Positions 4,800-55,620 of a stretch of 64,000 nt of DNA are shown here, piece by piece. The notes beneath the pieces were generated by a model that was given only the letters and a program-made list of their open reading frames with translations, searched no databases and had not been told where the DNA came from. The first letter of the stretch is position 1, and every line of letters starts with the position of its first letter. The translations under genes were made by a program, and so were the position numbers. Origin of the DNA: a phage; NCBI GenBank assembly GCA_036930585.1, contig GCA_036930585.1_3066.1, one strand, 5' to 3'.

Positions 4800-4976
4800 T
4801 TACCCTTTAAGTAAGTCGTAAAATCCGCCATTCACATGCTTAGGGGCAGAGACTAACCGAATAGCAATCCGATGACAATCAGGACATACATCAGTATCTC
4901 TTTCAGAAATTTTCTTGATTTTTTCGTATTCTTTTGCGCAGTCTTTTGATTGACATTTATAATCATAAAGCGGCAT
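4800..4976 (-). CDS. small zinc-ribbon protein (FmdB-like CxxC...CPxC), 58 aa; not in ORF track
   Basis: MPLYDYKCQSKDCAKEYEKIKKISERDTDVCPDCHRIAIRLVSAPKHVNGGFYDLLKG; fills the gap between flanking genes with 2-nt spacing. Confidence 0.5.
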   Translation of the reverse strand: MPLYDYKCQSKDCAKEYEKIKKISERDTDVCPDCHRIAIRLVSAPKHVNGGFYDLLKG

Positions 4977-4978
4977 AA

Positions 4979-5392
4979 TTATTCCTTAAAGTGAGCTTTC
5001 AACATCTGATACAAGGACCATGCCTGTTCATCATTTTCAATAGTAACTTTCATTACAGGGAATTTAGATTGATCAGTTATCGGTGCAGATTCTTCCTGCT
5101 CTTCAGCTGCCTGGTATGGATTTTCAACTTCATTAAAGAATTCAGCTTCATTCGATGAAAGCCAAATAAAATCTTCATCCAAAATATCTTTACCAGAAGA
5201 TAGTACTAAATTTCCAGCAAATGACATAATTTTAATAGGACGCCCAAGAGCATCCACATCTAAAATTTTAAAAGGATGCATGCCTAAACGGCGTGCATAG
5301 ATTCCGTTATCAGTATGGTCTTTAATAAAATTTTCTTGAGCTTGTTTATTTTTAAATTGATACCATTTATTAACTTCAAATTTAATAGCCAT
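4979..5392 (-). CDS. hypothetical protein, 137 aa (position of T4 goF/comC-alpha; not verified by sequence)
   Basis: ATG start, TAATG overlap with upstream gene. Confidence 0.55.
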
Positions 5393-25870: not shown

Positions 25871-25900
25871 ATAGTACCATAGAAGAACAGGGATGTAAAC
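25871..25900 (-). promoter_or_regulatory. early promoter (GTTTAC-18-TACTAT)
   Basis: minus strand GTTTACatccctgttcttctatggTACTAT. Confidence 0.5.
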
Positions 25901-40145: not shown

Positions 40146-40175
40146 AATAATACCACAGTTTGAGCTCGTTGTAAA
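40146..40175 (-). promoter_or_regulatory. early promoter (GTTTAC-18-TATTAT)
   Basis: minus strand GTTTACaacgagctcaaactgtggTATTAT. Confidence 0.5.
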
Positions 40176-40274
40176 CAACTTTGTGAAAATTATTTTAGGG
40201 AATGATAAGAAGGGAACGATAGCTTAGAATGGTAATATACAGAATGTGAGAAAGAAGGACCCAGAGGGCCCGTC

Positions 40275-49097: not shown

Positions 49098-49625
49098 TTA
49101 TGCGAGTACCGTCTTTAACCGTTCTTCAAACTTCCGAAGAGTATTTTGGCGTTCAGCTCTTTGCTTTTTGTAAGTTTCAATACGCTCTGAAATGAGAGTG
49201 TATCGTTCATTTACTGATTCTTTCATAAAATCAGGAATTTCACGAGAAGCTTTAATCTCATCAAATTTATCAATAACAGCTTGCTCTTCAGCAATTAAGT
49301 TATCATACATCAAAATATCTTTCTTGATGAACTCAATATCTTCTTGAGTTACACGAGATAATTTAGATGCTTTATCCTTTTTGTACTGTTCGTTAGTATC
49401 ACGAGACCAGTGTAATGTACGATTTTTATTCGTATTCTTGTAAATTTCTACAATACCAATCTCATCGATAATAACGATCCAATTCCAATGAGATTTGTAA
49501 ATTTGTCCTCCGTCAACCGTGATTTCACCTCCGATTGAGATGTCATTAAAGAACTTGCTTTGTGCTTCAGATTTAAATTTACCATCGTTGTAATTTACCA
49601 GGTTGAAAATATCTTTAGCGTTCAT
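49098..49625 (-). CDS. hypothetical protein, 175 aa
   Basis: ATG ORF. Confidence 0.55.
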   Translation of the reverse strand: MNAKDIFNLVNYNDGKFKSEAQSKFFNDISIGGEITVDGGQIYKSHWNWIVIIDEIGIVEIYKNTNKNRTLHWSRDTNEQYKKDKASKLSRVTQEDIEFIKKDILMYDNLIAEEQAVIDKFDEIKASREIPDFMKESVNERYTLISERIETYKKQRAERQNTLRKFEERLKTVLA

Positions 49626-49653
49626 TTTGTGTTCCTCCGTAGTTGATAGTTGT

Positions 49654-49683
49654 ATAGTACCACAGAGGAACAGTCTTGTAAAC
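49654..49683 (-). promoter_or_regulatory. early promoter (GTTTAC-18-TACTAT)
   Basis: minus strand GTTTACaagactgttcctctgtggTACTAT. Confidence 0.45.
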
Positions 49684-49685
49684 CA

Positions 49686-50000
49686 CTAAAAGAAACTTCT
49701 TTCACAATTTTTTCCACTGAACCATGCGCTTACCGCTTTCTTAGTCTCAGGAGCAGTGTTATCCATAAACCATTCAAAGGCAGCCTTTTTATGATTCTGG
49801 AGGGCTTCTCGGGCTTTAATCTGCTCACGGTCTATTAACACTAACATATGAGCCTTTCTTGTCACCATGGGCTTCTTATGATTTTTTGAATACTCCCAGT
49901 CATTTGTCCAACGCATCGTTGTTGCGAACTGATGAACCGCGTCTTTAATTTTAGTTTCGTAAATTTCACGAGCCTTTGAGTATAACATCATTACCTCCAT
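49686..50000 (-). CDS. hypothetical protein, 104 aa
   Basis: ATG ORF. Confidence 0.5.
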   Translation of the reverse strand: MEVMMLYSKAREIYETKIKDAVHQFATTMRWTNDWEYSKNHKKPMVTRKAHMLVLIDREQIKAREALQNHKKAAFEWFMDNTAPETKKAVSAWFSGKNCERSFF

Positions 50001-50090
50001 TCACCAGTTTAATTCTAGTCATCTTTTTAATGGCAGTCCATATAATCTATTTCTGAACTGCCTTTTTGTCATAGAAGTCCTCTTATGAAT

Positions 50091-51059
50091 TTATTTCAGA
50101 AGAGTAACCTCAGCGATTTCTTGCCAACCGTTTTTGTCGGTCATAATAAAGTCAGCAAGATAAAGTGCAGTACGCAGTGAAACATTGCGTAAACGATTAA
50201 CATTGACTTTCATCCATGATAATGCTTTATAAGTTTCTTCATCAGAAAGACCGCGCTTTTGCATCATGTCAGTTGAAAGAATAACATCTTCAACCCTGAC
50301 CATAATTTCTTCATTAGTGTGAACACCCAAATCCAAATAAACCGAGCGGGACACTAATGCTTGTAAATGTGGAGCAAGTTTAGTACCACGGTCTAATTCG
50401 CGGTCAATGTCAACGTTTGTGATAAAAACAATCGTTCCTTTAAATTCAAACTCACGCTCAATGCCTTTTTCTTCTAAGTAAGAAGATGCGGTGCTCCAGC
50501 AGACTTTACGGGTCTCTCCAGTGTCCAGAGCAGCTTTCAGAAGATTAAGAATGTCCATATCAGAGAAAACATCCACATCATCAATCAAAAGGACAGAATT
50601 CTCTTCACGATTATTCCAAAGTTGTTCATAAAGACCGATACCGGAGATTTTACCGTTAATGCTTTTATATTCAATGTATCCATTATCATTTGCTTTATTC
50701 AAAGCTTTATCTAAAGAATACGTTTTACCAATACCCGCCGCACCAGAGATAATTAATGAACGAATGTTTCCGTTAATAATACCATTCGTCATCATTCCCA
50801 TAACATTAAATCTTTTATTAATGCGGGTTTTCATATCTTCATATGATTCTTTAACTTCTTCAACTTTTACACCATCATATGAAATGTCTGATTTGTAAAC
50901 CCAAACACCGCGACGCTTACCGTCAATTTCAACAAAAACTTTACCATCTCCTTGTGCATCTACCGGAGCATTATCTGGGAACCATTCACCTAAGAACTCA
51001 AAAGTTCCAGAGATTTCTTTACCGAAGTAGATACCCTTATTGATAGTTACAGTTTTCAT
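50091..51059 (-). CDS. AAA+ ATPase, 322 aa
   Basis: Walker A GAAGIGKT, Walker B LLIDDVD; ATG at 51059 with GGAG SD. Confidence 0.6.
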   Translation of the reverse strand: MKTVTINKGIYFGKEISGTFEFLGEWFPDNAPVDAQGDGKVFVEIDGKRRGVWVYKSDISYDGVKVEEVKESYEDMKTRINKRFNVMGMMTNGIINGNIRSLIISGAAGIGKTYSLDKALNKANDNGYIEYKSINGKISGIGLYEQLWNNREENSVLLIDDVDVFSDMDILNLLKAALDTGETRKVCWSTASSYLEEKGIEREFEFKGTIVFITNVDIDRELDRGTKLAPHLQALVSRSVYLDLGVHTNEEIMVRVEDVILSTDMMQKRGLSDEETYKALSWMKVNVNRLRNVSLRTALYLADFIMTDKNGWQEIAEVTLLK

Positions 51060-51128
51060 TTTATTCTCCAATCTCACATTTGTTTTGATAGGGTAATAGT
51101 ATCACACTACTACCCTTCTGTAAACAAT

Positions 51129-51392
51129 TTATTTTAACGTTCGCCAAATTTTTACTGCTTCACGGCGAGATACTTCTACAGCTCCAAGTTCTACAGCTTT
51201 TTGGCGTCGGCGAGCGTGTAAGTCATAATGTTTAATGCGTTTATCTTGAAACCAAGAACGTTTCATTCCTATTGCTTCTGCCATTTCATGAAGCTCTTCA
51301 ATATCTCCATCAGTGAACATATGACAATTTTTAGTTGGATGACCGCGAAGTTTCCATCCATGATTCATTAAAACATCTACGTAAACTGTCAT
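51129..51392 (-). CDS. DUF4031-like small protein, 87 aa
   Basis: MTVYVDVLMNHGWKLRGHPTKNCHMFTD... Confidence 0.5.
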   Translation of the reverse strand: MTVYVDVLMNHGWKLRGHPTKNCHMFTDGDIEELHEMAEAIGMKRSWFQDKRIKHYDLHARRRQKAVELGAVEVSRREAVKIWRTLK

Positions 51393-51538
51393 TGATTCTT
51401 CTCCAAATAAGTTTCGATAATTTTCTGAGCGAGATAAACTGCATTATCTTCAGTTGCATCTTCTAAGAAACTTTCAAAACACTCTGAAATTTCTTCTGTG
51501 TCAATCAACTTTTTTACTTCAATTGGTGTAATTTTCAT
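51389..51538 (-). CDS. small hypothetical protein, 49 aa
   Basis: ATG at 51538; the longer TTG-initiated track ORF would start inside the promoter. Confidence 0.4.
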   Translation of the reverse strand: MKITPIEVKKLIDTEEISECFESFLEDATEDNAVYLAQKIIETYLEKNQ

Positions 51539-51575
51539 TTTGTTTTTCCGTTTAAGTGTTTGTTTTGATAGTTGT

Positions 51576-51605
51576 ATAGTACCATAAAGCTTTATGCTTG
51601 TAAAC
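51576..51605 (-). promoter_or_regulatory. early promoter (GTTTAC-18-TACTAT)
   Basis: minus strand GTTTACaagcataaagctttatggTACTAT. Confidence 0.5.
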
Positions 51606-51635
51606 AATTTTGTGAAAAATTTTTGAAATAAAAAA

Positions 51636-51653
51636 GGGAGCCCGAAGGCTCCC
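51636..51653 (-). terminator. stem-loop downstream of nucleotidyltransferase gene
   Basis: gggagcccgaaggctccc. Confidence 0.5.
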
Positions 51654-51655
51654 TA

Positions 51656-52666
51656 TCATTTATAATAACTTCGGTGGTTTTCAAGATAAACCCTCTCAAG
51701 GAAGTCATCCCAGAAACCCATGTCTACTTTTTGCTGCATACCGTTCTTAGAAGCTTCAGTAGATGCTGCTTCTACTTGATCGACCACATCTTCCAAAAAC
51801 TCTTGAACCGTTTTAAATGGATGTTTACCCAACTTCACGTCGAGAATAAATGGAGCATCTTTGAGTGGATAAACCAAGTCACCAGTTTTGTAAATTTCCA
51901 ATAGTTGGAGTCCACCACGGCAAGCATGGCTCAGAGCTTTCCAGTCAATACCTTCATTGGCTTCGGCCTTACGAGCACGTTCACCATATTCAGCATCTAA
52001 TTTGTTCAGTGACTGCTTAAGCTCAATAAGAGAAAGCGTTGTCTGATATTTACGACCCAACACTGTGTAAAACGTCTGTGGGCCTGTTTTCTCATGATTA
52101 TGGAACACCCATTCACAGAATTCGTTTTCTGGAAGACGATGCTTAATATCTTCAACTTTAGTACGACGCTGCTTAATGGAACCGTCTTCTTGGTAATCAA
52201 CCCATTGCTCAGGGATTTGATTAACTACTTTCAATACATCACGTAATGCAGCCAAACGAGAACCCTTGACACCGTATTTAGAAGCTTGCTTGCGGACATA
52301 TCCTAAATAGGATTTCATGTTAGTCGTATAAAAACGAGAACGGTTGTCTTGAATAAACTTCCACACATCAGGCAAATCAGATTTAACCACTAGTTCAGGT
52401 GGAGTGTGAAGCATATCCAATGCTACAGTTTCACCATCTGCTGCTAATTTAAAGAAATATTTAAGACTGTATAGTTCATGGTCAATATCATCTTTAGTGT
52501 TTTTAGATGATGTGTTGTTAGTGTTTTTACTCATGTGCTCTTTAACGTTTCCGATAAGAATATCACGAGCAGGAGGAACAAAGATTTCTTTAAAATCTAC
52601 ATCAGATTCTGGGGTAGAAGTTCCATAAAGATGACTACCAAAATAAGACTTAACTACAGTTTTCAT
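51656..52666 (-). CDS. Pol-beta-superfamily nucleotidyltransferase-like protein, 336 aa
   Basis: N-terminal FGSHLYGTSTPESDVDF (GS...DxD minimal nucleotidyltransferase motif). Confidence 0.55.
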   Translation of the reverse strand: MKTVVKSYFGSHLYGTSTPESDVDFKEIFVPPARDILIGNVKEHMSKNTNNTSSKNTKDDIDHELYSLKYFFKLAADGETVALDMLHTPPELVVKSDLPDVWKFIQDNRSRFYTTNMKSYLGYVRKQASKYGVKGSRLAALRDVLKVVNQIPEQWVDYQEDGSIKQRRTKVEDIKHRLPENEFCEWVFHNHEKTGPQTFYTVLGRKYQTTLSLIELKQSLNKLDAEYGERARKAEANEGIDWKALSHACRGGLQLLEIYKTGDLVYPLKDAPFILDVKLGKHPFKTVQEFLEDVVDQVEAASTEASKNGMQQKVDMGFWDDFLERVYLENHRSYYK

Positions 52667-53127
52667 TATTCAGCCTTATATTCAATAACAGGACATACTT
52701 TAGCTTTACGAGCTTTTAAAAATTCAACGATAACCGATTTCTTTGGTTGAATAGGAGGTAAACCTTTATACGCCCTATCAATATTTTCTACATGTAAAGC
52801 ATAATCCTTTTTCCATTTATAATCTTTATATTTTTCATGCAGTTGTGCAGGAATAACAAATGAACCAATAATAAGTAAAATAAGCAAAATGGCAAGTATA
52901 AATGCTGATGGAATAAGAGTCCATAAACTACCAAAAATAAGCCATTTCTGTATGATTTCTGCACAGATAATAGTTAGACCTGCGAGTATAGTACATCCGA
53001 AAAAAGAAACGAAAAATGTAGGGATAACAATAGACCAAAAGTATGCACACAATGTCTTAGGTCGTTTCCATTCGTCGTTAAACAGTTTGAATAATTTATA
53101 GTGCCAAGAGTTTTCATTAATAATCAT
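52666..53127 (-). CDS. membrane protein, 153 aa
   Basis: multiple hydrophobic helices. Confidence 0.55.
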   Translation of the reverse strand: MIINENSWHYKLFKLFNDEWKRPKTLCAYFWSIVIPTFFVSFFGCTILAGLTIICAEIIQKWLIFGSLWTLIPSAFILAILLILLIIGSFVIPAQLHEKYKDYKWKKDYALHVENIDRAYKGLPPIQPKKSVIVEFLKARKAKVCPVIEYKAE

Positions 53128-53129
53128 AA

Positions 53130-53651
53130 TTATCCTTTCATTGAAGGTGTAACAGTTGTTAAATACTTAATCATAGCCTCAGCTTCTGATTTTGATAATG
53201 AAATTTCTTCATTGTTTTGACGAATAGAAATAAAATCCGGATGACGGTCACCACCAGCTTTTAAAACACACATATAAGTATCAGTTTCATCTTCAATATC
53301 TGAAATGATTGAAGCAGTTCCACATGAATGTGGTTTTTGATAAATCAATACAGCTTTTCTTCCACCGTTTGACTGTTCATAAACTTTTAACACATCAAAC
53401 AAATCGCTTCTTTTATCAATAGCTAAGATGTTGTTTTCATCTTCAATATTAAATCCTTCGGATACTTCATAAAGTGTCACCCATAAATCACCAATATCAA
53501 TAACAGCGTTCACTTTTCCATGACTTTCAAGAGCATTACAAATTTTCTTAATTTCATCATAACTCATTTTAATAATATCATCTCCTTGAATAAGGAAGAT
53601 GTCATTTTTAAATTCAACACGAATTAAACCGCTTCCACTTGAAATAAACAT
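53130..53651 (-). CDS. hypothetical protein, 173 aa (paralog pair with next gene)
   Basis: similar C-terminus to 53658-54191 product. Confidence 0.5.
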   Translation of the reverse strand: MFISSGSGLIRVEFKNDIFLIQGDDIIKMSYDEIKKICNALESHGKVNAVIDIGDLWVTLYEVSEGFNIEDENNILAIDKRSDLFDVLKVYEQSNGGRKAVLIYQKPHSCGTASIISDIEDETDTYMCVLKAGGDRHPDFISIRQNNEEISLSKSEAEAMIKYLTTVTPSMKG

Positions 53652-55590: not shown

Positions 55591-55620
55591 ATAGTACCAC
55601 AGCTCAAACGGAAAGTAAAC
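55591..55620 (-). promoter_or_regulatory. early promoter (GTTTAC-18-TACTAT)
   Basis: minus strand GTTTACtttccgtttgagctgtggTACTAT. Confidence 0.45.

Follow-up and report, generated by a model that had tools for sequence, protein, structure and literature searches.

Two enzymes of the RlaP family (PF10127/COG3541), from Pseudomonas fluorescens and P. aeruginosa, add one or two nucleoside monophosphates to the 3′-OH of RNA in a Mn2+-dependent reaction. They act neither on DNA nor on E. coli proteins. Of a cleaved-tRNA mimic they use the 5′ half in preference to an acceptor 3′ end. Full-length tRNA and rRNA are also labelled, with little specificity for the nucleoside triphosphate (NTP). That RlaP serves as the antidote to ‘smart’ ribotoxins, RloC among them, has been proposed in a preprint, which also places NrdC.11 of phage T4 in the family, without assigning it a function, in cluster 5 of a sequence similarity network (bioRxiv 10.64898/2025.12.29.696909). 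The same repair role had been predicted in 2021 for the RlaPs of jumbo phages (PMC7824862). The subject here is nrdC.11 as it occurs in a 64,000-nt stretch of phage DNA (the window; approximately 34% GC), together with nrdC.10 and a small two-gene insert that parts them. These genes are on the minus strand.

The phage from which the window derives is a T2/T4-like coliphage. Window bases 49600–53200 share 98–99% identity with numerous genomes of Tequatrovirus (EC101, fFiEco06, D5505 and others), and T4 itself and annotated relatives carry the two large open reading frames (ORFs) under the names nrdC.10 and nrdC.11. Both are long-catalogued T4 genes, separated here by the insert, which is mobile. 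Domain hints were printed in 2006, AAA for nrdC.10 and a COG3541 nucleotidyltransferase for nrdC.11 (PMC1524935); no functional study of either gene was found in the literature under their name variants.

The genes were already known, and both the assignment to RlaP and the repair role proposed for the nucleotidyltransferase are already in print. The window adds no new kind of system. What it contributes is a set of neighbourhood counts specific to the NrdC.11 subfamily, evidence against a functional reading of the adjacency of nrdC.10 and nrdC.11, and a clean case of the gain of a two-gene cassette (orf49 and a DUF4031 gene) mediated by a PeSL. PeSL stands for promoter-early stem-loop, an element that mediates modular shuffling in T4-type phages (Arbiol et al. 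2010, PMC2839356; Comeau et al. 2014, PMC4122927). The best explanation of the locus, and one we consider probable, is that it comprises three independently promoted early-gene units in the nrdC–mobD hyperplastic region and is not one system, with nrdC.11 encoding an RNA repair enzyme of the RlaP family.

An RlaP-family nucleotidyltransferase

The nrdC.11 ORF (52666–51656, minus strand) is the orthologue of T4/T2 nrdC.11 and encodes a 336-aa Pol-beta nucleotidyltransferase of the RlaP family. Its product matches Pfam RlaP (PF10127) with 43.9 bits (cut-off 23, E=3e-11), and this match is common to all 36 of the diverse relatives searched. The Pol-beta signature, G[GS], Dx[DE] and a third acidic residue, is present. 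An earlier note on this DNA, made from the letters alone, had assigned an N-terminal nucleotidyltransferase signature to the 336-aa protein, and it is indeed found, as FGSHLYGTSTPESDVDF at residues 9–25. Of the functions offered there for the enzyme, ‘RNA tailing/repair’ pointed in the right direction. Across 36 sequences, with identities down to 28%, G10, S11, D22, D24 and D62 do not vary, and in a profile–profile alignment made with hhalign, D22, D24 and D62 pair with conserved acidic residues of canonical RlaP. Judged by these residues, the catalytic apparatus of NrdC.11 is intact.

Beyond the N-terminal domain the sequence alignments break off, at approximately residue 100–134. The C-terminal two-thirds of NrdC.11 give no alignment to canonical RlaP, and a long helical region at the C-terminus is specific to the NrdC.11 subfamily. 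No RlaP structure was detectable in the PDB by sequence or family-profile search, and PDB sequence searches with each protein of the cluster and with family profiles gave no useful match. A scan of NCBIfam gave no significant match, and PADLOC none at E<=0.1 for any of the four proteins.

In T4 the segment from nrdC.11 to mobD.3 is dispensable (PMC9825161), as expected of a counter-defence accessory gene. The earlier note had named homology to a housekeeping enzyme with conserved synteny in T4 as a finding that would speak against its reading, and this applies in part. The genes are those of T4, nrdC.10 and nrdC.11, but nrdC.11 is accessory (deletable) and not housekeeping.

RNA-repair neighbours of NrdC.11 relatives

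Neighbours within 10 kb were collected for 37 phage loci in IMG/VR whose NrdC.11 homologue is less than 55% identical, and 43 NrdC.10 loci, 34 of them distant, served as control. At least one RNA-end enzyme is present in 18 of the 37 distant phage loci, in many at a distance of 0–2.5 kb on the same strand and often immediately adjacent. The 43 control loci have none (Fisher p=6e-7 with the 34 distant ones as reference). The neighbours comprise an HD + P-loop kinase (6 loci), a CCA-adding enzyme (5 loci), an Rnl1-type ligase (5 loci), a PHA02142-OB + RNA_ligase protein of Rnl2 type (4 loci) and an HD protein (4 loci). Genes for NAD salvage (NAMPT, PRPP synthetase) are found a few kb from the NrdC.11 homologue in several of the distant phages (L105, L108, L110, L132 and L135), where they accompany genes for the CCA-adding enzyme or the HD-kinase.

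The bacterial set consists of 80 genome loci (L143–L222) with full-length homologues of 29–54% identity, many of them from Alphaproteobacteria. RNA-repair neighbours occur in 40 of the 80 and are mostly directly adjacent. The commonest is a canonical 269-aa RlaP directly downstream (23 loci), followed by RtcB (8), Pnkp (5), Ro60 (5), an HD protein (5), Hen1 (4) and an Rnl1-type ligase (4). Outside the T4-like phages, the NrdC.11 subfamily is embedded in RNA-repair operons. In the 23 tandem pairs the canonical RlaP begins approximately 0–75 bp after the long NrdC.11 type on the same strand (L218 and L165 are examples), and such pairs are themselves often embedded in Ro60–RtcB or Hen1–Pnkp operons.

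Proposed role in tRNA repair

For NrdC.11 itself we infer the biochemical activity, a tRNA substrate and cooperation with Pnkp and Rnl1; the likeliest role would be the restoration of nucleotides on damaged tRNA before ligation by the T4 Pnkp/Rnl1 pathway. A host anticodon nuclease would cut tRNA and remove a nucleotide (damage of the RloC type). T4 Pnkp, which like Rnl1 is encoded elsewhere in the genome, would heal the tRNA ends. After the missing nucleotide had been restored by NrdC.11, Rnl1 (RNA ligase 1) would then join the ends, and some of the repaired tRNA would be functional again.

A bolder form of this proposal is put forward tentatively, and we incline to doubt it. It holds that the long RlaP of NrdC.11 type is a second RNA-end nucleotidyltransferase with a function of its own, the sole RlaP type kept by T-even phages, and an unrecognised third tRNA-repair enzyme which lets Pnkp and Rnl1 defeat RloC-like nucleases. 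If NrdC.11 does restore excised nucleotides, the textbook pathway of Pnkp and Rnl1 versus PrrC gains a third component, and there is an answer to whether phages can counter the ‘repair-proof’ anticodon nucleases of RloC type.

NrdC.11 might alternatively be an RNA 3′-end nucleotidyltransferase that works outside ligase-coupled anticodon-loop repair, mending trimmed 3′-CCA ends of tRNA or tailing host or phage RNAs and so altering their stability. This is unlikely. CCA-adding enzymes do recur beside the distant phage homologues (the five loci above), the labelling of full-length tRNA and rRNA by the Pseudomonas RlaPs, with its low NTP specificity, would suit such a function, and nrdC.11 has no linkage to pseT or rnlA in T4-like genomes. 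However, the commonest neighbours are ligases and end-healing enzymes (Rnl1, Rnl2-type, RtcB, Pnkp/Hen1 and HD-kinase), and RlaP prefers the cleaved-tRNA mimic's 5′ half over the acceptor 3′ end.

Transcription signals and the PeSL junction

The second part of the proposal, that the locus consists of separate units, rests in part on the signals between the genes. Two nt past the nrdC.11 stop codon begins an intrinsic terminator hairpin (51654–51635, minus strand), AGGGAGCC-TTCG-GGCTCCCT followed by a T-run, with a stem of 8 bp and a TTCG loop. Its sequence, the stem-loop half of the PeSL, is identical in T4. Then comes a T4-type early promoter, GTTTACA-N17-TACTAT (51605–51576, minus strand), which is the promoter half of the PeSL and fits the published T4/PST PeSL consensus, TTTACW-N17-TAYWAT (PMC4122927). 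In the window it drives orf49 and the gene for DUF4031, and in T4 it drives nrdC.10 directly. Directly upstream of nrdC.10 in the window is a second, near-identical early promoter (51125–51096, minus strand). The two copies constitute a direct repeat (D3) with a spacing of 480 bp, and they bound the cassette. A second stem-loop was not found before nrdC.10.

The early promoter motif is present in 6 copies in the window, all on the minus strand, versus 0.21 expected by chance. The four other copies, GTTTACA-N17-TA(C/T)TAT, are at 25871–25900, 40147–40176, 49654–49683 and 55591–55620, also on the minus strand. The copy at 49654–49683 shares with that at 51576–51605 a repeat of 60 nt which is 72% identical.

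The terminator–promoter pair is a known type of cassette junction, that of PeSLs. With a terminator and a promoter inside the cluster, nrdC.11 and the DUF4031 gene fall into separate transcription units. Both signals had been recognised in the earlier note, which positioned them correctly. It took them to bracket the cluster, however, and they are inside it, between nrdC.11 and the DUF4031 gene. The second early promoter at 51125–51096 and the 49-aa ORF at 51538–51389 were overlooked there.

The orf49–DUF4031 cassette

The first gene of the cassette, orf49 (51538–51389, minus strand), encodes a conserved acidic protein of 49 aa that matches phrog_6888 (E=5e-31). Its stop overlaps the start of the second gene by 4 nt (ATGA). 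That gene (51392–51129, minus strand) encodes a protein of 87 aa, whose likeness to DUF4031 had been noticed at the outset and is substantiated by a nearly full-length match to Pfam PF13223 (77.7 bits, cut-off 25.6, E=8e-22).

When the window is aligned with T4, the same terminator and promoter are seen to be followed in T4 directly by nrdC.10, and orf49, the DUF4031 gene and a promoter copy appear as a 480-bp insert in the window. The cassette is an independently acquired, mobile accessory unit that is absent from T4. DUF4031 is found in 337 phage records, versus 1313 for NrdC.10 and 1520 for NrdC.11. In other T4-like genera, too, orf49 accompanies DUF4031. In Klebsiella Jiaodavirus the pair is approximately 1.8 kb downstream of nrdC.10, not upstream, and the small ORF there is 44% identical to orf49. 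In three IMG/VR contigs (L225–L227, at approximately 4855–5261) the cassette proteins are 94–96% identical to those of the window, whereas the flanking NrdC.10 is 73% and NrdC.11 68% identical, a disparity that bespeaks recent lateral transfer between T4-like lineages. Recombination between copies of the early promoter, a shuffling of the PeSL type, probably inserted the cassette.

The DUF4031 residues D6, H24, Q49, H55, Y56 and D57 are invariant in the alignment, and the AlphaFold2 (AF2) model has a predicted local distance difference test score (pLDDT) of 92.5. No confident structural relative was found, and the literature on DUF4031 amounts to one phage-genome paper. The invariant Asp and His residues make the protein a candidate small enzyme, and suggest that it may be one. 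That the mobile orf49–DUF4031 pair represents a new small enzyme in phage–host conflict is less likely.

Among 80 IMG/VR DUF4031 loci, nrdC.10 is nearby in only 10, all of them T4-like. In long metagenomic and bacterial contigs, DUF4031 neighbourhoods are arrays of small unannotated phage-like ORFs, and no link to RlaP, AAA+ or RNA repair was found in them. A protein of DUF5131 (PF07505, the Gp37/Gp68 family of phages) recurs beside DUF4031 in seven viral contigs that are not related to each other (L233, L245, L247, L277, L286, L287 and L297). In L287, the representative locus, at least, its gene is directly downstream. DUF5131 is also present approximately 2.3 kb upstream in contigs L009–L011, which carry a Mycobacterium-like DUF4031 (P0207). 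A functional link of DUF5131 with DUF4031 is possible.

NrdC.10 and its relation to NrdC.11

The nrdC.10 gene (51059–50091, minus strand) begins with an ATG preceded by a GGAG ribosome-binding site and encodes an AAA+ ATPase of 322 aa; read mechanically from a GTG further upstream, the ORF has 328 aa. The Walker A (GAAGIGKT) and Walker B (LLIDDVD) motifs that had been pointed out in the 322-aa protein are at residues 106–113 and 157–163. The AF2 model (pLDDT 89.4) has an N-terminal beta domain (residues 1–62), a linker helix (73–95), an AAA+ core (approximately 100–245) with an insert before sensor 1, and a helical lid (249–320). In 26 NrdC.10 homologues GAAGIGKT, D160–D161, N215, R238 (in SRS) and R291/R296 are invariant. 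N215 is the probable sensor-1 residue and R238 the probable Arg finger, and R291/R296 would have the sensor-2 role, all of these by their position in the model.

No Pfam AAA-clan model is matched above its gathering score, the nearest being nSTAND3 (22.3 bits, cut-off 27.2) and AAA (16.1, cut-off 21.2); one distant NrdC.10 homologue does pass PF00004 (32.7 bits versus 21.2). By its predicted fold, a P-loop alpha/beta core with a C-terminal helical lid, NrdC.10 is a genuine AAA+ ATPase.

The idea that it forms a functional module with the nucleotidyltransferase came with the earlier note, and the distribution of the two genes does not bear it out. Within the 43 IMG/VR NrdC.10 loci, NrdC.11 is no more than 10 kb away in all 9 at >=66% identity and in none of the 34 at <=58%. 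Conversely, 32 of 45 close NrdC.11 loci, and 1 of 37 distant ones, have NrdC.10 at most 10 kb away. In the bacterial set a homologue of NrdC.10 is present in the flank of a single NrdC.11-type locus (1/80), on a 167-kb contig (L145) that may be phage-derived. The adjacency of nrdC.10 and nrdC.11 is inherited synteny within close T4 relatives and does not attest joint function; between the two genes are a terminator, a pair of promoters and the mobile cassette.

It is accordingly very unlikely that the nucleotidyltransferase and the AAA+ ATPase, perhaps with DUF4031, constitute one module, be it for making or removing a nucleotide signal (anti-CBASS or anti-Thoeris-like) or as an ATP-driven RNA-tailing machine. 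The invariable proximity of the large genes in close NrdC.10 loci, and its frequency in close NrdC.11 loci, would be as expected of such a module, and the three units are all early genes on the same strand. Their separation elsewhere is nevertheless telling. In Aeromonas phage 44RR2.8t, NrdC.11 is at approximately 46.6–47.5 kb (173,591-bp record) and the NrdC.10 locus is at 148–169 kb in the IMG/VR contig taken as the same phage. In Ackermannviridae and KVP40-like phages NrdC.10 is among genes of replication and nucleotide metabolism, with no RlaP nearby. The terminator and separate promoters between the genes, and the mobility of the DUF4031 cassette and its absence from T4, also argue against the module, and the synthesis or removal of a nucleotide signal, as envisaged earlier, finds no counterpart in PADLOC or in CD-NTase-type matches. 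That NrdC.10 assists NrdC.11 in T-even phages only is likewise among the less likely readings.

Neighbour clustering revealed no partner conserved across lineages near distant NrdC.10 homologues. There are lineage-specific neighbours (InlB-repeat, radical-SAM and NUMOD3 proteins), which are uninformative. In an Ackermannviridae vibriophage the homologue is among genes for a clamp loader, regA, a MazG-like protein and RNase H, in a KVP40-like phage it is between those for ribonucleotide reductase and topoisomerase II, and in jumbo phage CBB it is among unknown genes. NrdC.10, which has an early promoter to itself and no tie to RNA repair, is probably a switch or remodeller of AAA+ type that acts early and independently.

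Points that weigh against the proposed reading

Several observations tell against a reading of the locus as separate units of which one is concerned with RNA repair. The families counted as RNA-repair neighbours were picked after the NrdC.11 loci had been viewed, and the comparison with the controls somewhat favours the hypothesis. No RNA-repair gene adjoins nrdC.11 in the window or in T4-like genomes (0/45 loci); in T4, pseT and rnlA are approximately 80 kb from it. The Pfam RlaP alignment spans only residues 7–134 (model positions 24–142 of 249), and the hhalign alignment to canonical RlaP spans residues 4–97 only, with a probability of 38%. The RlaPs that have been assayed belong to another sequence cluster than the NrdC.11 type, and the tandem arrangement in bacteria suggests that the NrdC.11 type and canonical RlaP are non-redundant paralogues and differ in role. 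As to the separateness of the units, read-through of the terminator could co-express all three. The persistent proximity of nrdC.10 and nrdC.11 across close (>=66%) loci could reflect weak functional coupling, but plain synteny accounts for that proximity equally well.

That NrdC.11 is an MNT/MntA-like modifier which nucleotidylylates a host toxin or other protein, as in HEPN-MNT, is hardly credible: its N-terminal GS...DxD does give a faint match to MntA (NCBIfam E=0.066, far below the cut-off) and there is a weak match to NTP_transf_2, but the significant and consistent family is RlaP, the bacterial RlaPs labelled neither DNA nor the proteins of E. coli, no HEPN partner was found nearby, and the neighbours of its relatives are RNA-repair genes. 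An MntA-like protein adenylyltransferase was rejected on account of that sub-threshold match. A signal enzyme of CBASS or Thoeris type was also rejected; no model was matched, and the only significant nucleotidyltransferase family is RlaP.

Flanking genes and annotation

In T4, mobD, which encodes an HNH homing endonuclease, is between nrdC.11 and mobD.1 (PMC2988022). In its place the window has two other ORFs (52666–53651, minus strand), encoding proteins of 153 aa and 173 aa. The former is a predicted membrane protein (phrog_944), and its stop overlaps the start of nrdC.11.

ARAGORN detected no tRNA genes in window positions 1–64000. No Rfam family, group I introns included, reached its gathering threshold in the same interval; T4 has such an intron in nrdD, in the matching part of its genome.

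In many GenBank entries for T4-like genomes the products of nrdC.4 to nrdC.11 are labelled ‘thioredoxin’, an apparent propagation of the name from the nrdC locus-tag prefix; ‘putative DNA polymerase’ and ‘HNH homing endonuclease’ are other wrong labels in use. The searches run gave no thioredoxin identity for any of the NrdC.4–NrdC.11 proteins.

Comparison with known systems

Among AAA+ proteins, those to which NrdC.10 is nearest are the types with a pre-sensor-1 insert (MoxR-type NorQ/CbbQ, NtrC-type and MCM, and more loosely DnaA/ORC/RFC), with which its identity is only 10–18%. It differs from them in its N-terminal beta domain, which is unique, and in a Walker B motif with DD, not DE. No VWA partner, such as the MoxR type has, and no DNA-binding domain were detected for it.

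The likeness of the cassette to described PeSL cassettes is close. A stem-loop terminator is followed by a consensus early promoter, repeats flank variable ORFs in a hyperplastic region, and presence or absence between close relatives maps exactly to the promoter repeats. The difference is that here the duplication at the right-hand boundary comprises the promoter half alone.

With RlaP (PF10127/COG3541), NrdC.11 shares the N-terminal nucleotidyltransferase domain with GS...DxD and a third Asp, a score above the gathering threshold, and relatives in RtcB, Pnkp/Hen1 and Rnl1 neighbourhoods. It is longer than canonical RlaP, 336 aa versus approximately 270 aa, and its gene in T4-like phages is unlinked to ligase genes.

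The classical repair by T4 Pnkp/PseT and Rnl1 of the damage inflicted by PrrC concerns a single cut without loss of a nucleotide, and in this it differs from what is proposed for NrdC.11. Phage lineage and arms race are common to the two. Their distribution is also alike, that of NrdC.11 over phage genera mirroring that of Rnl1: the counts for T4 Rnl1 homologues versus NrdC.11 are 287 versus 286 for Klebsiella, 83 versus 83 for Shigella and 69 versus 69 for Acinetobacter. Within that pathway NrdC.11 would act between the healing of the ends and their sealing.

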